Of a stretch of 64,000 nt of DNA, positions 1-52,466 are shown one piece after another (position 1 is the first letter of the stretch; each line of letters starts with the position of its first letter). The stretch is from Escherichia coli (GTDB lineage: Bacteria > Pseudomonadota > Gammaproteobacteria > Enterobacterales > Enterobacteriaceae), in the NCBI RefSeq assembly GCF_003018115.1, contig NZ_CP027457.1; one strand, 5' to 3'. The translations under genes were made by a program, and so were the position numbers. Under the pieces are notes generated by a model, which had not been told where the DNA came from, searched no databases, and saw only the letters and a program-made list of their open reading frames with translations.

Positions 1-716
1 AGCGACTGCTGGATGAACTTAACAGCACGTTGCGCGATACCGGGCGTATGGGGCAACAACTGAGCGGAAAAGTTCGGGTCGCTGCCAGCCAGACCATTTC
101 CGCGCATCTTATTCCGCAATGCATTGCTGAAAGCCATCGCCGCTATCCAGATATTCAGTTTGTCCTGCACGATCGTCCGCAGCAGTGGGTGATGGAAAGT
201 ATTCGCCAGGGAGATGTCGACTTTGGCATCGTCATCGATCCAGGCCCAGTGGGCGATCTGCAATGTGAAGCGATTCTTTCCGAGCCTTTCTTTCTGCTTT
301 GCCATCGCGATAGCGCTTTGGCCGTGGAAGATTATGTACCCTGGCAGGCATTACAGGGAGCGAAATTGGTGTTGCAGGATTACGCGTCAGGCAGCCGACC
401 GCTGATTGACGCAGCGCTGGCGCGCAATGGTATTCAGGCGAATATTGTGCAGGAGATTGGACATCCGGCGACGCTGTTCCCGATGGTAGCCGCAGGCATC
501 GGCATCAGTATTCTTCCCGCACTGGCGCTACCATTGCCTGAAGGTAGCCCACTGGTGGTAAAGCGCATTACGCCGGTTGTTGAACGCCAGTTGATGCTGG
601 TGCGCAGGAAGAACCGTTCACTTTCCACCGCCGCTGAAGCGTTATGGGACGTGGTACGAGACCAGGGCAATGCGCTAATGGCTGGTCGGGAAGGGGATCC
701 GTTGTATCAGATATAG
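1..716 (+). CDS. yfeR: LysR-family transcriptional regulator, 5' end outside window (partial; frame of ORF 30..716)
   Basis: C-terminal LysR substrate-binding domain in the translation; position next to yfeN/xapA as in K-12 synteny. Confidence 0.75.
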
Positions 717-754
717 AGTGAATTCATACTGCCGGGAGCCCCGGCAGTAATCAA

Positions 755-1519
755 TCAGAAGTTAAATTTGATGGAGTAGATTATCGCATCCTGGTAAAAA
801 TCTTCGCCCAGTTTGTCATCCGCATATCGATACTGAATCCCCGTAGTAATGTGTGATGTTGCATTCCACCACAGTGCAACTGCGCCATTCAGCCCTTCTT
901 TACCGCCATTACCCGCTGCATAGGTAGCGTCACGGTCAAACTCGTACTCGTTCCAGTTGGTAAGAGTGAATTTCTCGCTGCCCAGCATAAAGTTGTAACC
1001 TGCAACCCAGCCGGCGACATAGCCGTTGTCGCCAGTGTAATAGGTTTGATCTGTATAACGCTTAGCAAAGAACGGTTTGAACCACCAACCGCTGCCGGTG
1101 AAATTGTAGCCGATACCGTACAGGAACATATCGTCGTGGAAATTCACGCGATTCGCAGAACCGTAGGTGCCATACGCATGCAAGTAGAAATTAAATCCGG
1201 TGTCACCCAGGTAAATACGGTTGGTATTTTTAAAGGTATAACGCTGCTCGCTACCTGGTTTATTATGGCGACCGTTATAGAAGTTTTCCCAGTCGAAGAA
1301 CCCGTACATTTCTCCCCAACTAAAGTTAGCGCCACCTTCAAATTCAAGATAGCCAAAATCATCTTTGTGTGATTTGGTCGACGATTTTTCGGTAGTCCGG
1401 CTGGTCCAGTCCAGATAATGCACGCCGATATCTGCAAAACCGCCTTTAAATTCTGCATGAGATACAACAGGTATCGCTAATATAGAGGAAAGTGTCAGAG
1501 TTAAAAGATGTTTTTTCAT
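755..1519 (-). CDS. yfeN: Tsx/OmpK-family nucleoside-specific outer-membrane channel homologue
   Basis: 254 aa with signal peptide ending ..VVSHA, aromatic-rich beta-barrel composition, C-terminal F; adjacent to xapA. Confidence 0.85.
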   Translation of the reverse strand: MKKHLLTLTLSSILAIPVVSHAEFKGGFADIGVHYLDWTSRTTEKSSTKSHKDDFGYLEFEGGANFSWGEMYGFFDWENFYNGRHNKPGSEQRYTFKNTNRIYLGDTGFNFYLHAYGTYGSANRVNFHDDMFLYGIGYNFTGSGWWFKPFFAKRYTDQTYYTGDNGYVAGWVAGYNFMLGSEKFTLTNWNEYEFDRDATYAAGNGGKEGLNGAVALWWNATSHITTGIQYRYADDKLGEDFYQDAIIYSIKFNF

Positions 1520-1767
1520 AGCATAATTCCCTATGCCGATCGTTATTAGTAGATTGCTTAATAAAGTGGTTTGCTAAAAACGACATATTGTTAATGCAAA
1601 GGAATTAATATCGCCAATACAGTTTTTACCGTGGATTAATAGAGGAAAGATATAAATCCATCGATATCGAATCGCTATTGAATGCGTGAGAAAAGTGTAT
1701 TGGTAAGAGCCGGGACAACCTCGCTATAAAAAGGCGTTAGATTCCACCCTACAGAAAAAGGATATAT

Positions 1768-2601
1768 ATGTCTCAGGTTCAATTTTCTCATAACATGCTG
1801 TTTTGCATAGATATTATCAAGACTTATAAACCTGATTTCACGCCACGAGTGGCCTTTATTTTAGGTTCCGGGCTCGGCGCGCTGGCCGATCAGATTGAGA
1901 ACGCTGTCGCAATTTCCTACGAAAAGCTGCCGGGCTTCCCGGTAAGTACGGTACATGGTCATGCGGGGGAGTTAGTGCTGGGCTATCTCCAGGGCGTACC
2001 GGTGGTATGTATGAAAGGTCGCGGACATTTCTACGAAGGTCGTGGAATGACCATTATGACTGACGCAATTCGTACCTTTAAGCTGCTGGGCTGTGAGCTA
2101 CTGTTCTGCACCAATGCGGCAGGCTCGCTGCGTCCGGAAGTGGGGGCAGGCAGCCTGGTCGCATTGAAAGATCATATCAACACCATGCCAGGTACGCCGA
2201 TGGTGGGACTTAACGATGATCGTTTTGGAGAGCGTTTCTTCTCACTGGCAAATGCCTACGATGCGGAATACCGCGCACTGTTACAAAAAGTGGCGAAAGA
2301 AGAGGGTTTCCCTCTGACGGAGGGCGTGTTCGTCTCGTATCCGGGGCCGAATTTCGAGACTGCGGCGGAAATTCGCATGATGCAAATTATTGGTGGGGAT
2401 GTTGTTGGTATGTCTGTGGTGCCTGAGGTTATTTCAGCTCGCCATTGCGACCTTAAAGTCGTTGCGGTCTCTGCGATTACCAATATGGCGGAAGGTTTAA
2501 GCGATGTGAAATTGTCACATGCGCAAACGCTGGCGGCTGCGGAGCTCTCTAAGCAGAACTTCATCAACCTTATTTGTGGCTTTCTGCGCAAAATTGCCTG
2601 A
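1768..2601 (+). CDS. xapA: xanthosine phosphorylase (purine nucleoside phosphorylase II)
   Basis: 277 aa, PNP family, matches XapA as recalled; followed by xapB and xapR. Confidence 0.95.
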   Translation: MSQVQFSHNMLFCIDIIKTYKPDFTPRVAFILGSGLGALADQIENAVAISYEKLPGFPVSTVHGHAGELVLGYLQGVPVVCMKGRGHFYEGRGMTIMTDAIRTFKLLGCELLFCTNAAGSLRPEVGAGSLVALKDHINTMPGTPMVGLNDDRFGERFFSLANAYDAEYRALLQKVAKEEGFPLTEGVFVSYPGPNFETAAEIRMMQIIGGDVVGMSVVPEVISARHCDLKVVAVSAITNMAEGLSDVKLSHAQTLAAAELSKQNFINLICGFLRKIA

Positions 2602-2660
2602 GAAAAACAATAAGAAACGGCCTCGCGGGTGAGGCCAAATGATGCGACAAGGAAACGATT

Positions 2661-3917
2661 ATGAGCATCGCGATGCGCTTAAAGGTAATGTCCTTTTTGC
2701 AATATTTTATCTGGGGGAGCTGGCTGGTTACCCTCGGCTCTTACATGATTAATACCCTTCATTTCACCGGCGCTAATGTTGGCATGGTTTACAGTTCCAA
2801 AGGGATCGCCGCGATTATTATGCCTGGTATAATGGGGATCATCGCAGACAAATGGCTGCGTGCAGAACGTGCATACATGCTATGTCACCTGGTGTGTGCG
2901 GGCGTACTTTTTTATGCGGCATCCGTAACTGATCCGGATATGATGTTTTGGGTGATGTTAGTCAATGCGATGGCGTTTATGCCGACTATTGCGTTATCGA
3001 ACAGCGTCTCTTATTCCTGTCTTGCCCAGGCAGGGCTTGACCCGGTGACCGCTTTTCCGCCCATTCGCGTTTTTGGTACGGTGGGGTTCATTGTCGCGAT
3101 GTGGGCAGTAAGCCTGCTGCATCTGGAATTGAGTAGTCTGCAGCTGTATATCGCGTCCGGTGCGTCATTGCTGCTGTCGGCTTATGCGCTGACTTTGCCG
3201 AAGATTCCGGTTGCGGAGAAAAAAGCGACCACATCGCTTGCCAGCAAGCTGGGTCTGGATGCCTTCGTGCTGTTTAAAAATCCACGCATGGCCATCTTTT
3301 TCCTCTTTGCCATGATGCTGGGTGCGGTACTGCAAATTACCAACGTTTTTGGTAATCCGTTCCTACATGATTTCGCCCGTAACCCGGAGTTTGCTGACAG
3401 TTTTGTGGTGAAATATCCCTCCATTTTACTGTCAGTTTCACAGATGGCAGAAGTGGGCTTTATACTGACTATCCCATTCTTTTTAAAGCGATTTGGCATT
3501 AAAACCGTCATGCTGATGAGTATGGTGGCCTGGACGCTGCGCTTTGGCTTCTTCGCCTATGGCGATCCGTCAACAACCGGATTTATTTTGCTGCTGCTGT
3601 CGATGATTGTTTATGGCTGTGCATTCGATTTCTTCAATATTTCTGGTTCGGTATTTGTCGAACAGGAAGTTGATTCCAGCATTCGTGCCAGCGCGCAGGG
3701 GCTCTTTATGACCATGGTAAATGGTGTCGGCGCATGGGTTGGCTCGATTCTGAGTGGCATGGCAGTAGATTACTTTTCGGTGGATGGCGTAAAAGACTGG
3801 CAAACTATCTGGCTGGTGTTTGCAGGATATGCTCTTTTTCTCGCAGTGATATTTTTCTTTGGGTTTAAATATAATCATGACCCTGAAAAGATAAAGCATC
3901 GAGCGGTGGCTCATTAA
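2661..3917 (+). CDS. xapB: xanthosine/nucleoside:H+ symporter (MFS, NHS family)
   Basis: 418 aa polytopic membrane protein downstream of xapA. Confidence 0.93.
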   Translation: MSIAMRLKVMSFLQYFIWGSWLVTLGSYMINTLHFTGANVGMVYSSKGIAAIIMPGIMGIIADKWLRAERAYMLCHLVCAGVLFYAASVTDPDMMFWVMLVNAMAFMPTIALSNSVSYSCLAQAGLDPVTAFPPIRVFGTVGFIVAMWAVSLLHLELSSLQLYIASGASLLLSAYALTLPKIPVAEKKATTSLASKLGLDAFVLFKNPRMAIFFLFAMMLGAVLQITNVFGNPFLHDFARNPEFADSFVVKYPSILLSVSQMAEVGFILTIPFFLKRFGIKTVMLMSMVAWTLRFGFFAYGDPSTTGFILLLLSMIVYGCAFDFFNISGSVFVEQEVDSSIRASAQGLFMTMVNGVGAWVGSILSGMAVDYFSVDGVKDWQTIWLVFAGYALFLAVIFFFGFKYNHDPEKIKHRAVAH

Positions 3918-3969
3918 AAGGATTCGCAGCTCTGCTCTTCAGAGCTGCTTTTATGATAAAGGTTAATTA

Positions 3970-4128
3970 GTGAAAGATATTTTATTTTCTTCCGGCGTTG
4001 GTTTTGGCATTGGTGCTTTGTTTACAATCGTGCGCTTGCCTATTCCTGTACCAAATGTATTACCGGGTATATTATCCATTGTGTTTATGTATGTCGGATA
4101 TCTGGTGGTGAAATACTTTATGCCATGA
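3970..4128 (+). CDS. small hydrophobic XapX-like membrane protein (52 aa, GTG start), not in the supplied ORF track
   Basis: GTG at 3970 preceded by AAAGG about 9 nt upstream; translation VKDILFSSGVGFGIGALFTIVRLPIPVPNVLPGILSIVFMYVGYLVVKYFMP; lies in the xapB-xapR gap. Confidence 0.5.
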   Translation: MKDILFSSGVGFGIGALFTIVRLPIPVPNVLPGILSIVFMYVGYLVVKYFMP

Positions 4129-4168
4129 TAATTTAATACGATGTATTTATTATATGGAGCACTTAATC

Positions 4169-5053
4169 ATGGAACGCGTATACAGAACAGATCTTAAGTT
4201 GCTCCGTTATTTTCTTGCCGTAGCGGAAGAGTTGCATTTTGGCCGCGCAGCAGCGCGTTTAAATATGTCTCAGCCTCCGCTCAGTATTCATATTAAAGAA
4301 CTGGAAAATCAACTCGGCACGCAGCTTTTTATTCGCCATTCGCGCAGCGTCGTACTGACACACGCGGGCAAAATCTTGATGGAAGAATCGCGTCGATTGC
4401 TGGTGAATGCTAATAATGTATTGGCTCGGGTTGAACAAATAGGTCGGGGAGAAGCAGGGCGGATTGAACTCGGCGTAGTGGGAACGGCAATGTGGGGACG
4501 GATGCGCCCGGTTATGCGGCGATTCCTCAGGGAAAATCCTAACGTTGACGTTCTTTTTCGCGAAAAGATGCCCGCGATGCAAATGGCCTTGCTGGAACGC
4601 CGCGAACTTGATGCCGGGATCTGGCGAATGGCGACAGAACCACCGACTGGTTTTACCAGCTTACGGTTGCATGAATCGGCGTTTCTGGTGGCGATGCCTG
4701 AAGAGCATCATCTCTCATCATTTTCCACCGTCCCGCTGGAAGCGCTACGTGACGAGTATTTTGTTACAATGCCGCCCGTTTACACTGACTGGGATTTTTT
4801 GCAGCGAGTTTGCCAGCAGGTGGGATTTTCACCGGTTGTTATTCGCGAAGTTAATGAACCGCAAACGGTACTCGCTATGGTCAGTATGGGCATTGGTATC
4901 ACATTGATAGCGGACAGCTACGCACAAATGAACTGGCCAGGTGTCATTTTCCGTCCGCTCAAACAGCGCATCCCTGCAGATTTATATATTGTTTATGAAA
5001 CACAGCAGGTGACGCCCGCGATGGTTAAGCTGTTGGCTGCATTGACACAGTAG
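4169..5053 (+). CDS. xapR: LysR-family activator of the xap operon
   Basis: Translation from MERVYRTDLKLLRYF (294 aa) has an HTH N-terminus; the ORF-track start at 4154 adds 5 codons that are probably not translated. Confidence 0.9.
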   Translation: MERVYRTDLKLLRYFLAVAEELHFGRAAARLNMSQPPLSIHIKELENQLGTQLFIRHSRSVVLTHAGKILMEESRRLLVNANNVLARVEQIGRGEAGRIELGVVGTAMWGRMRPVMRRFLRENPNVDVLFREKMPAMQMALLERRELDAGIWRMATEPPTGFTSLRLHESAFLVAMPEEHHLSSFSTVPLEALRDEYFVTMPPVYTDWDFLQRVCQQVGFSPVVIREVNEPQTVLAMVSMGIGITLIADSYAQMNWPGVIFRPLKQRIPADLYIVYETQQVTPAMVKLLAALTQ

Positions 5054-5130
5054 GTGAGGAGACAGGAATTGCCGGAAATAGTAGTCTGCTAAGTGAAGCG
5101 CATCAGGCAATTTCGCAAATCGCAGATAGC

Positions 5131-5158
5131 AAAAAAGCGCCTTTAGGGCGCCTTTTTA
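5131..5158. terminator. GC hairpin flanked by A-run and T-run; bidirectional intrinsic terminator between xapR and the tRNA operon
   Basis: aaaaaagcgcctttagggcgccttttt. Confidence 0.5.
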
Positions 5159-5161
5159 CAT

Positions 5162-5237
5162 TGGTGGGTCGTGCAGGATTCGAACCTGCGACCAATTGAT
5201 TAAAAGTCAACTGCTCTACCAACTGAGCTAACGACCC
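5162..5237 (-). tRNA. lysV: tRNA-Lys (UUU)
   Basis: Reverse complement reads GGGTCGTTAGCTCAGTTGGTAGAGCAGTTGACTTTTAATCAATTGGTCGCAGGTTCGAATCCTGCACGACCCACCA. Confidence 0.95.
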
Positions 5238-5241
5238 GAAG

Positions 5242-5317
5242 TGGTGGGTGATGACGGGATCGAACCGCCGACCCCCTCCTTGTAAGGGAGGTGCTCTCCC
5301 AGCTGAGCTAATCACCC
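5242..5317 (-). tRNA. valY: tRNA-Val (UAC)
   Basis: Reverse complement reads GGGTGATTAGCTCAGCTGGGAGAGCACCTCCCTTACAAGGAGGGGGTCGGCGGTTCGATCCCGTCATCACCCACCA; which of the K-12 val paralogues it corresponds to is uncertain. Confidence 0.95.
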
Positions 5318-5361
5318 ACTTCTCAATTTCTTGCTACACGGCGGAGACTACATAAAGTAGT

Positions 5362-5437
5362 TGGTGGGTGATGACGGGATCGAACCGCCGACCCCCTCCT
5401 TGTAAGGGAGGTGCTCTCCCAGCTGAGCTAATCACCC
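5362..5437 (-). tRNA. valU: tRNA-Val (UAC), second identical copy
   Basis: Identical 76-nt sequence 44 bp upstream (in operon sense) of the first Val gene. Confidence 0.95.
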
Positions 5438-5454
5438 CCGCTGTGTGGAGTCGC

Positions 5455-5482
5455 ATTATAGGGAGAGTTCAAAATGAGTCAA
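5455..5482 (-). promoter_or_regulatory. sigma70 promoter of the Val-Val-Lys tRNA operon
   Basis: Minus strand reads TTGACT, 16-nt spacer, TATAAT just upstream of the first tRNA-Val. Confidence 0.5.
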
Positions 5483-5695
5483 CGCATTTTCTAAAGAAAT
5501 TGTTCGTTCGTCGTAAATTTAAGCAAGATGATCGCAAAACAGACCGTGTTGCGCAATTTGTCAACGAAAACAATAATGCGTAAGGTTGCAACCCGAACTA
5601 CATTGAGGAATCAGGCGGGAGTGATAGAATATCGCCCACTCAATTTTTCCAGGATTTGCCGGTTGTCGGCATCTTTCTAAACGTAAGGCCATTTC

Positions 5696-7111
5696 ATGAA
5701 AATCAAAACTCGCTTCGCGCCAAGCCCAACAGGCTATCTGCACGTTGGCGGCGCGCGTACTGCTCTTTACTCCTGGCTTTTTGCACGTAACCACGGCGGT
5801 GAGTTCGTGCTGCGTATTGAAGACACCGATCTTGAGCGTTCCACGCCGGAAGCTATCGAAGCCATTATGGATGGCATGAACTGGCTGAGCCTGGAGTGGG
5901 ATGAAGGTCCGTACTTCCAGACCAAACGTTTTGATCGCTACAACGCGGTGATCGATCAGATGCTGGAAGAGGGCACAGCTTATAAATGCTATTGCTCTAA
6001 AGAGCGCCTGGAAGCGCTGCGCGAAGAGCAAATGGCGAAAGGTGAGAAGCCGCGTTATGACGGTCGCTGCCGCCACAGTCATGAGCATCACGCTGATGAT
6101 GAGCCGTGTGTCGTACGTTTTGCTAACCCGCAGGAAGGTTCTGTTGTTTTTGACGATCAGATCCGTGGTCCGATCGAGTTCAGCAACCAGGAACTGGACG
6201 ATCTTATTATCCGCCGTACCGATGGTTCCCCAACCTATAACTTCTGTGTGGTTGTCGATGACTGGGATATGGAAATCACCCACGTTATCCGTGGCGAAGA
6301 CCATATCAACAACACGCCACGCCAGATCAACATTCTTAAGGCCCTGAAAGCGCCGGTGCCGGTTTACGCGCACGTTTCTATGATCAATGGCGATGACGGT
6401 AAAAAACTGTCCAAACGTCACGGGGCAGTCAGCGTAATGCAGTATCGTGATGACGGTTATTTGCCAGAAGCACTGCTGAACTATCTGGTGCGTCTGGGCT
6501 GGTCCCACGGCGATCAGGAAATCTTCACTCGTGAAGAGATGATCAAATACTTCACTTTGAATGCCGTCAGCAAATCTGCCAGTGCGTTCAACACCGACAA
6601 GCTGCTGTGGCTGAACCATCACTACATTAACGCGCTGCCGCCGGAGTATGTTGCTACTCACTTACAGTGGCACATTGAGCAGGAAAATATCGATACCCGT
6701 AACGGCCCGCAGCTGGCTGATCTGGTGAAACTGCTGGGCGAACGCTGCAAGACGCTGAAAGAGATGGCACAGAGCTGCCGTTATTTCTACGAAGATTTTG
6801 CTGAGTTCGATGCCGATGCGGCGAAAAAACATCTGCGTCCGGTAGCGCGTCAGCCGCTGGAAGTGGTTCGTGACAAACTGGCCGCGATTACTGACTGGAC
6901 CGCTGAAAACGTTCATCACGCTATTCAGGCGACGGCGGATGAGCTGGAAGTGGGTATGGGTAAAGTTGGTATGCCGCTGCGTGTCGCCGTAACCGGTGCG
7001 GGGCAGTCTCCAGCACTGGATGTTACCGTTCACGCAATTGGTAAGACCCGCAGTATCGAGCGTATCAACAAAGCGCTGGATTTTATTGCTGAACGCGAAA
7101 ATCAGCAGTAA
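5696..7111 (+). CDS. gltX: glutamyl-tRNA synthetase
   Basis: 471 aa; class I aaRS HIGH-type motif ([11 protein letters not shown]) and KLSKR motif. Confidence 0.97.
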
Positions 7112-8136: not shown

Positions 8137-8212
<76 letters not shown>

Positions 8213-8251
8213 AATTTTGCACCCAGCAAATTTGGTACGTAAACGCATCGT

Positions 8252-8327
<76 letters not shown>

Positions 8328-10724: not shown

Positions 10725-10730
10725 CAGGCG

Positions 10731-10764
10731 TAAAAAAGCCGGGGAATGATCCCCGGCTTTTTTA
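10731..10764. terminator. bidirectional intrinsic terminator between pdeA and nupC
   Basis: aaaaaagccggggaatgatccccggctttttt. Confidence 0.6.
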
Positions 10765-10773
10765 TGTATGGTT

Positions 10774-47294: not shown

Positions 47295-48728
47295 CTAACC
47301 CAGTTGCCAGAGTGCCCCATGTTGCACCACAGCCACTCCGTGGGAGGCATAAAGCGACAGTTCCCGTTCTTCTGGCTGCGGATAGATTCGACTACTCATC
47401 ACCGCTTCCCCGTCGTTAATAAATACTTCCACGGATGATGTATCGATAAATATCCTTAGGGCGAGCGTGTCACGCTGCGGGAGGGGAATACTACGGTAGC
47501 CGTCTAAATTCTCGTGTGGGTAATACCGCCACAAAACAAGTCGCTCAGATTGGTTATCAATATACAGCCGCATTCCAGTGCCGAGCTGTAATCCGTAATG
47601 TTCGGCATCACTGTTCTTCAGCGCCCACTGCAACTGAATCTCAACTGCTTGCGCGTTTTCCTGCAAAACATATTTATTGCTGATTGTGCGGGGAGAGATA
47701 GATTGATGCTGCTGGCGTAACGACTCAGCTTCGTGTACCGGGCGTTGTAGGAGTTTGCCATTGCTCTCTGATAGCTCGCGCGCCAGCGTCATGCAGCCTG
47801 CCCAGCCTTCACGTTTTGAGGGCATTGGCGATTCCCACATATCCATCCAGCCGATAACAATACGCCGACCATCCTTCGCTACAAAGCTTTGTGGTGCATA
47901 AAAGTCATGCCCGTTATCAAGTTCAGTAAAATGCCCGGATTGTGCAAAAAGTCGTCCTGGCGACCACATTCCGGGTATTACGCCACTTTGAAAGCGATTT
48001 CGGTAACTGTATCCCTCGGCATTCATTCCCTGCGGGGAAAACATCAGATAATGCTGATCGCCAAGGCTGAAAAAGTCCGGACATTCCCACATATAGCTTT
48101 CACCCGCATCAGCGTGGGCCAGTACGCGATCGAAAGTCCATTCACGTAATGAACTGCCGCGATAAAGCAGGATCTGCCCCGTGTTGCCTTGGTCTTTCGC
48201 CCCGACTACCATCCACCATGAGTCGGCTTCACGCCACACTTTAGGATCGCGGAAGTGCATGATTCCTTCTGGTGGAGTGAGGATCACACCCTGTTTCTCG
48301 AAATGAATACCATCCCGACTGGTAGCCAGACATTGTACTTCGCGAATTGCATCGTCATTACCTGCACCATCGAGCCAGACGTGTCCGGTGTAGATAAGTG
48401 AGAGGACACCATTGTCATCGACAGCACTACCTGAAAAACACCCATCTTTGTCATTATCGTCTCCTGGCGCTAGCGCAATAGGCTCATGCTGCCAGTGGAT
48501 CATATCGTCGCTGGTGGCATGTCCCCAGTGCATTGGCCCCCAGTGTTCGCTCATTGGGTGATGCTGATAAAACGCGTGATAACGATCGTTAAACCAGATC
48601 AGGCCGTTTGGATCGTTCATCCACCCGGCAGGAGGCGCGAGGTGAAAATGGGGATAGAAAGTGTTACCCCGGTGCTCATGAAGTTTTGCTAGTGCGTTTT
48701 GCGCCGCATGCAATCGAGATTGCGTCAT
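47295..48728 (-). CDS. cscA: sucrose-6-phosphate hydrolase / invertase (GH32)
   Basis: GH32 motifs NDPNG and RDP; start taken at MTQSRL (AGGA 9 nt upstream) rather than the ATG at 48737. Confidence 0.9.
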   Translation of the reverse strand: MTQSRLHAAQNALAKLHEHRGNTFYPHFHLAPPAGWMNDPNGLIWFNDRYHAFYQHHPMSEHWGPMHWGHATSDDMIHWQHEPIALAPGDDNDKDGCFSGSAVDDNGVLSLIYTGHVWLDGAGNDDAIREVQCLATSRDGIHFEKQGVILTPPEGIMHFRDPKVWREADSWWMVVGAKDQGNTGQILLYRGSSLREWTFDRVLAHADAGESYMWECPDFFSLGDQHYLMFSPQGMNAEGYSYRNRFQSGVIPGMWSPGRLFAQSGHFTELDNGHDFYAPQSFVAKDGRRIVIGWMDMWESPMPSKREGWAGCMTLARELSESNGKLLQRPVHEAESLRQQHQSISPRTISNKYVLQENAQAVEIQLQWALKNSDAEHYGLQLGTGMRLYIDNQSERLVLWRYYPHENLDGYRSIPLPQRDTLALRIFIDTSSVEVFINDGEAVMSSRIYPQPEERELSLYASHGVAVVQHGALWQLG

Positions 48729-48762
48729 TTTAATCATCCTGGTTAAGCAAATTTGGTGAATT

Positions 48763-48774
48763 GTTAACGTTAAC
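48763..48774. promoter_or_regulatory. candidate CscR operator (12-bp palindrome), copy 1
   Basis: gttaacgttaac in the cscA-cscK divergent intergenic region. Confidence 0.4.
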
Positions 48775-48826
48775 TTTTATAAAAATAAAGTCCCTTACTT
48801 TCATAAATGCGATGAATATCACAAAT

Positions 48827-48838
48827 GTTAACGTTAAC
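48827..48838. promoter_or_regulatory. candidate CscR operator (12-bp palindrome), copy 2
   Basis: Identical gttaacgttaac 64 bp from copy 1. Confidence 0.4.
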
Positions 48839-48943
48839 TATGACATTTTGTGATCGAATATGCATGTTTTAGTAAATCCATGACGATTTTGCGAAAAAGA
48901 GGTTTATCACTATGCGTAAGTCAGATGAATTTAAGGGAAAAAA

Positions 48944-49858
48944 ATGTCAGCCAAAGTATGGGTTTTAGGGGATGCGGTAGTAGATCTCTTGCCAGAATCA
49001 GACGGGCGCCTACTGCCTTGTCCTGGCGGCGCGCCAGCTAACGTTGCGGTGGGAATCGCCAGATTAGGCGGAATAAGTGGGTTTATAGGTCGGGTCGGTG
49101 ATGATCCTTTTGGTGCGTTAATGCAAAGAACTCTGCTAACTGAGGGAGTCGATATCACGTATCTGAAGCAAGATGAATGGCACCGGACATCCACGGTGCT
49201 TGTCGATCTGAACGATCAAGGGGAACGTTCATTTACGTTTATGGTTCGCCCCAGTGCCGATCTTTTTTTAGAGACGACAGACTTGCCCTGCTGGCGACAT
49301 GGCGAATGGTTACATCTCTGTTCAATTGCGTTGTCTGCCGAGCCTTCGCGTACCAGCGCATTTACTGCGATGACGGCGATCCGGCATGCCGGAGGTTTTG
49401 TCAGCTTCGATCCCAATATTCGTGAAGATCTATGGCAAGACGAGCATTTGCTCCGCTTGTGTTTGCGGCAGGCGCTACAACTGGCGGATGTCGTCAAACT
49501 CTCGGAAGAAGAATGGCGACTAATCAGTGGAAAAACACAGAACGATCGGGATATATGCGCCCTGGCAAAAGAGTATGAGATCGCCATGCTGTTGGTGACT
49601 AAAGGTGCAGAAGGGGTGGTGGTCTGTTATCGAGGACAAGTTCACCATTTTGCTGGAATGTCTGTGAATTGTGTCGATAGCACGGGGGCGGGAGATGCGT
49701 TCGTTGCCGGGTTACTCACAGGTCTGTCCTCTACGGGATTATCTACAGATGAGAGAGAAATGCGACGAATTATCGATCTCGCTCAACGTTGCGGAGCGCT
49801 TGCAGTAACGGCGAAAGGGGCAATGACAGCGCTGCCATGTCGACAAGAACTGGAATAG
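48944..49858 (+). CDS. cscK: fructokinase (PfkB/ribokinase family)
   Basis: 304 aa; PfkB signature GAGDAF near the C-terminus. Confidence 0.9.
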   Translation: MSAKVWVLGDAVVDLLPESDGRLLPCPGGAPANVAVGIARLGGISGFIGRVGDDPFGALMQRTLLTEGVDITYLKQDEWHRTSTVLVDLNDQGERSFTFMVRPSADLFLETTDLPCWRHGEWLHLCSIALSAEPSRTSAFTAMTAIRHAGGFVSFDPNIREDLWQDEHLLRLCLRQALQLADVVKLSEEEWRLISGKTQNDRDICALAKEYEIAMLLVTKGAEGVVVCYRGQVHHFAGMSVNCVDSTGAGDAFVAGLLTGLSSTGLSTDEREMRRIIDLAQRCGALAVTAKGAMTALPCRQELE

Positions 49859-49929
49859 TGAGAAGTAAACGGCGAAGTCGCTCTTATCTCTAAATAGGAC
49901 GTGAATTTTTTAACGACAGGCAGGTAATT

Positions 49930-51177
49930 ATGGCACTGAATATCCCATTCAGAAATGCGTACTATCGTTTTGCATCCAGTTACTCATTTCTCTTTTTTAT
50001 TTCCTGGTCGCTGTGGTGGTCGTTATACGCTATTTGGCTGAAAGGACATCTAGGGTTGACAGGGACGGAATTAGGTACACTTTATTCGGTCAACCAGTTT
50101 ACCAGCATTCTATTTATGATGTTCTACGGCATCGTTCAGGATAAACTCGGTCTGAAGAAACCACTCATCTGGTGTATGAGTTTCATCCTGGTCTTGACCG
50201 GACCGTTTATGATTTACGTTTATGAACCGTTACTGCAAAGCAATTTTTCTGTAGGTCTAATTCTGGGGGCGCTCTTTTTTGGCTTGGGGTATCTGGCGGG
50301 ATGCGGTTTGCTTGACAGCTTCACCGAAAAAATGGCGCGAAATTTTCATTTCGAATATGGAACAGCGCGCGCCTGGGGATCTTTTGGCTATGCTATTGGC
50401 GCGTTCTTTGCCGGCATATTTTTTAGTATCAATCCCCATATCAACTTCTGGTTGGTCTCGCTATTTGGCGCTGTATTTATGATGATCAACATGCGTTTTA
50501 AAGATAAGGATCACCAGTGCGTAGCGGCGGATGCGGGAGGGGTAAAAAAAGAGGATTTTATCGCAGTTTTCAAGGATCGAAACTTCTGGGTTTTCGTCAT
50601 ATTTATTGTGGGGACGTGGTCTTTCTATAACATTTTTGATCAACAACTTTTTCCTGTCTTTTATGCAGGTTTATTCGAATCACACGATGTAGGAACGCGC
50701 CTGTATGGTTATCTCAACTCATTCCAGGTGGTACTCGAAGCAGTGTGCATGGCGATTATTCCTTTCTTTGTGAATCGGGTAGGGCCAAAAAATGCATTAC
50801 TTATCGGTGTTGTGATTATGGCGTTGCGTATCCTTTCCTGCGCGCTGTTCGTTAACCCCTGGATTATTTCATTAGTGAAGCTGTTACATGCCATTGAGGT
50901 TCCACTTTGTGTCATATCCGTCTTCAAATACAGCGTGGCAAACTTTGATAAGCGCCTGTCGTCGACGATCTTTCTGATTGGTTTTCAAATTGCCAGTTCG
51001 CTTGGGATTGTGCTGCTTTCAACGCCGACTGGGATACTCTTTGACCACGCAGGCTACCAGACAGTTTTCTTCGCAATTTCGGGTATTGTCTGCCTGATGT
51101 TGCTATTTGGCATTTTCTTCCTGAGTAAAAAACGCGAGCAAATAGTTATGGAAACGCCTGTACCTTCAGCAATATAG
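49930..51177 (+). CDS. cscB: sucrose:H+ symporter (MFS, oligosaccharide:H+ symporter family)
   Basis: 415 aa, 12-TM LacY-like protein. Confidence 0.92.
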   Translation: MALNIPFRNAYYRFASSYSFLFFISWSLWWSLYAIWLKGHLGLTGTELGTLYSVNQFTSILFMMFYGIVQDKLGLKKPLIWCMSFILVLTGPFMIYVYEPLLQSNFSVGLILGALFFGLGYLAGCGLLDSFTEKMARNFHFEYGTARAWGSFGYAIGAFFAGIFFSINPHINFWLVSLFGAVFMMINMRFKDKDHQCVAADAGGVKKEDFIAVFKDRNFWVFVIFIVGTWSFYNIFDQQLFPVFYAGLFESHDVGTRLYGYLNSFQVVLEAVCMAIIPFFVNRVGPKNALLIGVVIMALRILSCALFVNPWIISLVKLLHAIEVPLCVISVFKYSVANFDKRLSSTIFLIGFQIASSLGIVLLSTPTGILFDHAGYQTVFFAISGIVCLMLLFGIFFLSKKREQIVMETPVPSAI

Positions 51178-51296: not shown

Positions 51297-52466
51297 TTAA
51301 GCTGCAACCGTCTGTGTGACGGATTTACGCTGGCCTCCATGGGCAGAAACGACGAGTCCCGCCGCTTGTAATTCCAGTATGCCCTTGCGTTTGATGTTGA
51401 GCGCCGCGTTGATATCGCGGTCATGTTCAACTCCACACTCTGGACACTGCCAGATGCGCTTATGTAATGGCATCTCCGACATTTTGTGACCGCAGCAGTG
51501 GCAGATTTTCGAACTGGCGAACCATTGATCCAGTTTCACCAGATGCACACCTTTCTCTGTTGCTTTGTATTCCAGTTTTGTGATGAATCCAGACCATCCA
51601 GCATCGCCTATCGCACGAGCCAGATGGTGATTTTTCATCATATTTGCCGTTTTCAATGTCTCGACAATTACCGCTTGGTTTTCGTCAACAATTGCGCGAG
51701 ATAACTTGTGCTGGAAATCGGCACGGGCACTGGCTACCCGTTCGTGAACGGCTGCAAGTTGTATTCTGGCTTTGCGCCTGTTTGCGCTCCCTTTTTTCTT
51801 ACGGGACAGTGCTTTCTGCTTCCGGCGAAGGTTGCGACTTGCATTGATTAGGTGGCGGGGACTGGCAATTTTATTGCCGTCCGATTTGATGACAAAATGC
51901 GCCAGCCCCATATCCAGCCCTGTCACATTTGATATCAGTGCGGGCTTTGCCGGCGCTTCCATCCCGTCGTCACAGAGTAACGACGCGTAGTATTTCCCGG
52001 TTGCGCTGCGGCTCAACGTGATACTTTTCAGCATTCCCGTAATTTCACGATGTAAACGCGCTTCAATCGGCAAGATTTTCGGTATTTTTATCGCACCATC
52101 AAGGACTTTTATGCCAACACAATGATAGCTCGATTGTCTGCCGTGTTTACTTTTAAAGGTAGGTTTACCTGCTTTCAGTTTCGGATTGAAAAAGTTAGAA
52201 AAAGCCACGTCGAGGTTAATTACCGCCTGCTGCAACGCAATAGAATCATATTCTTTAAGCCATCCATACCGGCGGGATTTCTTCGCCACTGCAAGCAGTG
52301 GTTTGAGGTCTTTACGCGGGTTTAAATTTACGCGGTGCCGCTGGTAAGAATGTTTCTTGATATGCAGAGCTTTGTTGTACGCAAAACGCACTGCACCGAA
52401 CTGGGCGTTGATAAATTCAGCCTGTTCTGGTGTCGGGTAGATGCGTACTTTTGTTGCTCTTAACAT
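51297..52466 (-). CDS. tnpB: TnpB (OrfB) RuvC-like RNA-guided endonuclease of the IS200/IS605 family
   Basis: 389 aa; N-terminal HTH-like region, RuvC-I (GLDMGL), RuvC-II (VIVETLK), zinc ribbon CHCCGH...CPECG, RuvC-III (HDRDINAALNI). Confidence 0.9.
   Translation of the reverse strand: MLRATKVRIYPTPEQAEFINAQFGAVRFAYNKALHIKKHSYQRHRVNLNPRKDLKPLLAVAKKSRRYGWLKEYDSIALQQAVINLDVAFSNFFNPKLKAGKPTFKSKHGRQSSYHCVGIKVLDGAIKIPKILPIEARLHREITGMLKSITLSRSATGKYYASLLCDDGMEAPAKPALISNVTGLDMGLAHFVIKSDGNKIASPRHLINASRNLRRKQKALSRKKKGSANRRKARIQLAAVHERVASARADFQHKLSRAIVDENQAVIVETLKTANMMKNHHLARAIGDAGWSGFITKLEYKATEKGVHLVKLDQWFASSKICHCCGHKMSEMPLHKRIWQCPECGVEHDRDINAALNIKRKGILELQAAGLVVSAHGGQRKSVTQTVAA

Follow-up and report, generated by a model that had tools for sequence, protein, structure and literature searches.

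A two-copy valU tRNA array in Escherichia coli and the probable loss of one 122-bp unit

In one stretch of Escherichia coli DNA (64,000 nucleotides of contig NZ_CP027457.1, assembly GCF_003018115.1, in the following called the window), the tRNA operon next to gltX has two tRNA-Val genes beside lysV, one fewer than in K-12. This raises the question whether a gene has been lost here or gained in K-12, and, if it has been lost, whether this happened in the strain or in the assembly.

The array and its K-12 counterpart

An earlier note on this DNA had described a tRNA-Lys gene and two identical tRNA-Val genes 44 bp apart, and ARAGORN and Rfam agree on these genes and on their coordinates. The features of the array, all on the minus strand, are the following.

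5129-5159 (-): Rho-independent terminator hairpin directly 3' of lysV, with a 13-bp stem, -18.8 kcal/mol and z = -3.9
5162-5237 (-): tRNA-Lys(UUU), lysV, found by ARAGORN and Rfam (tRNA, RF00005), identical to K-12 lysV
5238-5241 (-): 4-bp Val-Lys spacer CTTC, as between K-12 valY and lysV
5239-5322 (-): 84-bp tract (GAAGT, the 76-nt Val gene and CTT), shared without a difference by the valX unit and the valY unit in genomes with three copies
5242-5317 (-): tRNA-Val(UAC), second copy, found by ARAGORN and Rfam (RF00005), identical to K-12 valU, valX and valY
5318-5361 (-): 44-bp spacer, in the alignment the same sequence as between K-12 valU and valX
5362-5437 (-): tRNA-Val(UAC), promoter-proximal copy and valU equivalent, found by ARAGORN and Rfam (RF00005), identical to K-12 valU, valX and valY
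5455-5482 (-): sigma-70 promoter, TTGACT-16 nt-TATAAT, with 11/12 consensus matches and a distance of about 17 bp to the first Val gene downstream

The two Val genes are identical at 76/76 positions in a pairwise comparison and follow each other at a distance of 120 bp from start to start, and ARAGORN found no further Val genes within the 64-kb window. The array sits between xapR (end of the open reading frame at 5053) and gltX (ATG at 5696) and is divergent from gltX. The promoter region upstream of the first Val gene is the same sequence as that upstream of K-12 valU in the alignment, and the terminator is conserved except for one A-to-G change that retains the pairing as G-U. For this terminator, the scan gave a hairpin on the plus strand only, and it was the folding of the minus-strand RNA that confirmed the hairpin. 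By its position and sequence, the locus, with its single promoter and single terminator, is orthologous to the valU-valX-valY-lysV tRNA operon of E. coli.

The statement in the earlier note that K-12 has three Val genes before lysV is correct, as the MG1655 locus has the order valU-valX-valY-lysV (b2401-b2404) with spacers of 44, 46 and 4 bp. The alignment to this locus, which the note had proposed as a check, gave a clean 122-bp gap in the window, and this gap, which comprises one 76-bp Val gene and the 46-bp valX-valY spacer, is the sole difference within the array. Position between gltX and xapR, tRNA sequences, leader, promoter, 44-bp spacer, CTTC junction and terminator are all shared with K-12, and it is only in the number of Val genes (two instead of three, without the 122-bp valX/valY unit) and in the associated 44/46-bp spacing that the window departs from the valUXY-lysV arrangement. 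Because of the missing unit, the distance from the xapR stop to the gltX start is 643 bp in the window versus 765 bp with three Val genes, and the 46-bp valX-valY spacer, TCTCGCCAGCTAAATTTCTTGTAAAAATGTGAAGTACC, has no match in the whole window when 3 mismatches are allowed. The second Val gene of the window has the valX-type spacer upstream and the valY-type junction downstream and would therefore be a valX/valY recombinant; as 84 bases are the same in the valX unit and in the valY unit, the crossover can be placed anywhere in 5239-5322 and no finer.

K-12 also differs from the window by a 156-bp insertion after lysV, which is a second polymorphism at this locus. The insertion contains an RtT element (Rfam RF00391, 47.3 bits, positions 3360-3485 of the K-12 locus, L001), after which the 3' end of lysV and the terminator occur a second time, and the K-12 region that includes the insertion (3330-3593) corresponds to the lysV-xapR intergenic region at 5054-5161 of the window. 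It is absent in the window, in strain 99-3165 and in the O169:H41 relatives, where lysV and xapR are 108 bp apart. Elsewhere, xapR-gltX distances of 765 and of 921 bp are found, and both states are common.

Ancestral state and copy-number variation

The bare difference from K-12 would be compatible also with two ancestral copies and the gain of one Val gene in K-12, and the direction of the change was judged from other species. One genome per species was scanned for the Val-CTTC-Lys junction in other Enterobacteriaceae and Erwiniaceae, which gave 104 loci and, with ARAGORN, 83 complete valU-type arrays with the following numbers of Val genes.

3 Val genes: 69/83 arrays
2 Val genes: 8/83 arrays
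1 Val gene: 5/83 arrays
5 Val genes: 1/83 arrays

Three non-coli Escherichia species (L025, L066, L079) have three Val genes with the 44/46/4 spacing of K-12, and Salmonella has three with a spacing of 45/41/4. Since the large majority of the arrays is three-copy, including those of non-coli Escherichia and Salmonella, three Val genes are, as judged from this distribution, the ancestral state, and the window represents a loss. A gain in K-12 from a two-copy ancestor is refuted by the same data, as three copies are found in most other enterobacterial genera, as 5,042 of 5,426 E. coli genomes have at least three, and as also the closest relatives of the window are three-copy; the probability that remains for such a gain is practically nil.

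Within E. coli, copy-number classes were inferred from diagnostic junction queries in 5,426 complete genomes, with matches counted above 80% coverage.

44-Val-46: at least three copies, 5,042 genomes
44-Val-CTTC-lysV: the two-copy allele of the window, 213 genomes
leader-Val-46: an alternative two-copy allele, 133 genomes
leader-Val-CTTC-lysV: one copy, 26 genomes

The four classes sum to 5,414 of the 5,426 genomes, with 12 in no class. The allele of the window spans unrelated lineages (O157:H7 FRIK944, O103:H2 12009, APEC IMT5155, UMNF18 and O78:H4), the alternative two-copy allele occurs in derivatives of K-12 J53, and the one-copy allele occurs in K-12 TG1. As deletions are thus present in unrelated lineages and in laboratory derivatives of K-12, it can be concluded that such events recur. 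Products of the reciprocal expansion are found as well: a four-copy array (spacers of 44/44/46/4) is present in one genome, and the duplication junctions 46-Val-46 and 44-Val-44 occur in up to 79 and up to 70 genomes, respectively, about 150 together, these counts being upper bounds because a few of the top matches were pieced together from two segments in messy assemblies of laboratory strains. Altogether, the valU array has only one or two Val genes in about 7% of the complete E. coli genomes, and duplication junctions are found in about 3%. The valU operon is a well-characterised tRNA operon, and its loss of a Val gene is an already known copy-number polymorphism that recurs.

Origin of the two-copy state

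The lineage of the window can be recognized by five complete genomes (F9792, F6326-C1, 2014EL-1345-2, F8111-1SC3 and L7_E1373_ETEC) that are 100.0% identical to the window at 5700-30000 (24.3 kb, from gltX on) and belong to the ETEC O169:H41 lineage, F6326-C1 and 2014EL-1345-2 both being O169:H41. In all five (5/5), the array has three Val genes, spaced 44/46/4. An origin from Shigella or from an unsampled source, which a 25-kb search across the locus had suggested with a best identity of 98.7%, was dropped when the query that started at gltX gave these five genomes at 100.0%; in the 25-kb search, the repeat splits three-copy genomes into two places, and only two-copy genomes therefore rank at the top. 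Four further draft or complete relatives (L112, L123, L128 and L130), which came from exact-protein look-ups with EvgS, XapR and PdeA (873 to 4,953 blocks, as these proteins are widespread), have three Val genes between flanks that are both 100% identical to those of the window, the identity extending as far as 4,073 bp towards xapR and 10,486 bp towards gltX. Among the XapR and PdeA look-up loci, none that spans xapR-gltX has two copies, and the EvgS loci ended short of the array; a second assembly with flanks identical to those of the window and two copies was not found among the relatives sampled. With all nearest relatives being three-copy, the two-copy state is, within this sample, private to the strain of the window or to its assembly.

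The missing segment is exactly one period of the array, the breakpoints lie within identical sequence, and the flanks are unchanged. The loss of one period inside perfect direct repeats with intact flanks is what is expected from unequal sister-strand exchange or replication slippage, and the instability of tandem repeats in E. coli is well established. The earlier note had named unequal recombination between identical repeats as the likely cause, and this agrees with the exact period, with the position of the breakpoints and with the direction of the change, which is a loss. In the proposed mechanism, the identical valX and valY units, which form an 84-bp perfect repeat, would recombine or slip, either in a RecA-dependent unequal sister exchange or in a RecA-independent slippage, whereby one Val gene and the 46-bp spacer would be lost. 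The product would be Val, 44-bp spacer, Val, CTTC and Lys, and the event would have occurred in the strain's own DNA and not during assembly. The two-copy E. coli genomes in RefSeq (99-3165, O103:H2 12009, O157:H7 FRIK944) have this identical Val-44-Val-CTTC-Lys arrangement in a different genetic background, the best complete one being 99.4% identical over 4600-6200 of the window; compared with the 100.0% of the three-copy O169:H41 genomes, this indicates that the deletion of the window arose independently of the other two-copy lineages.

It has to be considered, however, that the strain may be three-copy and that the assembler dropped a 122-bp loop at the identical repeats of 76 to 84 bp. Such a collapse would give exactly the sequence of the window, odd copy numbers do occur in some of the laboratory-strain assemblies of the collection, and the three-copy state of the five closest complete genomes and of the draft relatives with identical flanks would be readily explained. 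An assembler would, however, have had to discard about 38 bp of unique spacer that belong to the missing unit, typical reads and the largest commonly used k-mers exceed the 84-bp repeat in length, the contig continues across the array without any break, and the same allele is biologically common, as it is carried by 213 complete genomes, many of which are long-read assemblies. An artefact of the assembly is thus unlikely, albeit not negligibly so. Much less probable still, and hardly to be expected, is an import of the two-copy allele by homologous recombination from a two-copy donor: although two-copy alleles circulate in many lineages, the flanks of the window match those of three-copy relatives at 100% identity for over 4 kb beyond one end of the array and over 10 kb beyond the other, they contain no sign of an imported tract where they were compared, and the best complete two-copy genome reaches just the 99.4% mentioned above. 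As the flanks of L112 are 100% identical over 4,073 and 2,693 bp and this relative is nevertheless three-copy, nothing appears to have been imported, and the change seems to be local and recent. It is therefore probable, on the basis of these comparisons, that the window carries a real deletion of one 122-bp unit, produced by a recombination or slippage event that joined the valX and valY units, and a recent deletion of this kind is the most likely explanation of the loss.

Gains and losses of whole tRNA gene units are known also from Pseudomonas fluorescens SBW25 (PMC7661048, PMC10954465). As in other tandem-repeat copy-number systems, deletion as well as duplication products of the valU array are visible in populations, but systems of the SBW25 type involve duplications of many kilobases, whereas the unit of the window has only 122 bp and lies inside a single operon.

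Consequences for the operon and further features of the window

RNase P processes the precursor of the valU operon in the 3'-to-5' direction, beginning at the terminator end (PMC4176162). As promoter, leader, junctions and terminator are intact, the operon of the window should still yield a single polycistronic precursor. RNase P would cut this precursor from the 3' end, and each transcript would supply two Val tRNAs where the three-copy operon supplies three. The earlier note had also pointed to an altered tRNA-Val gene dosage, which is true as a gene count (two Val genes versus three), and provided that lysT, an operon outside the window, is standard, there would be 4 instead of 5 tRNA-Val(UAC) genes. 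Even with valUXY-lysV present, a deletion of the lysT operon could be obtained only with complementation, and most deletions of non-essential tRNA transcription units had a minimal effect on growth (PMC11480407). By analogy with the latter, the loss of one Val gene is probably near-neutral, with a small effect on fitness. One could also imagine that the valU array serves as an adaptive copy-number dial, from one to at least four Val genes, that tunes tRNA-Val(UAC) relative to tRNA-Lys, and that selection rather than neutral drift accounts for the loss in this ETEC strain, but this would be very unlikely, and the recurrent gain and loss at the array is silent on selection.

On its own, the significance of the loss is very small. 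It is a reminder that the number of tRNA genes in tandem arrays varies within a species, that differences in tRNA copy number may be private to one strain and should be checked against reads before they are interpreted, and that codon-usage or tRNA-supply predictions based on the K-12 set of tRNA genes would be slightly off for strains with another copy number.

A second tandem array of the window, two tRNA-Ala(GGC) genes at 8137-8327 (+) that are 39 bp apart and equivalent to alaW and alaX, has the same number of genes as K-12 and is unaltered. In the pdeA-nupC intergenic region (about 10725-10773), three of the five 100%-identical genomes (H191-H193) and L128 have an insertion of about 1.35 kb that encodes a 370-aa DDE_Tnp_1 transposase and is absent in the window. 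A tRNA-Arg(CCU) gene is located at 53462-53536, adjoined at 53612-54661 by the gene of a formate/nitrite-transporter-family protein that is similar to yfdC. No Pfam integrase match was seen in the open reading frames checked beside this tRNA gene, and there thus appears to be no prophage integrated at tRNA-Arg(CCU) in the window. About 1 kb from this tRNA gene, at 51297-52466 (-), a 389-aa IS605-family OrfB/TnpB protein is encoded, with the Pfam domains OrfB_IS605, Cas12f1-like TNB and HTH_OrfB_IS605; a similar TnpB gene is present in L121, L124, L125 and L129 at another site, between gltX and yfeD. The region 47295-51177 resembles in its layout a sucrose (csc-type) cluster near dsdA/argW, and its 415-aa LacY-family symporter (49930-51177; Pfam LacY_symp, E = 1e-193), which adjoins open reading frames of 304 and 480 aa, is the one member that was checked with Pfam.
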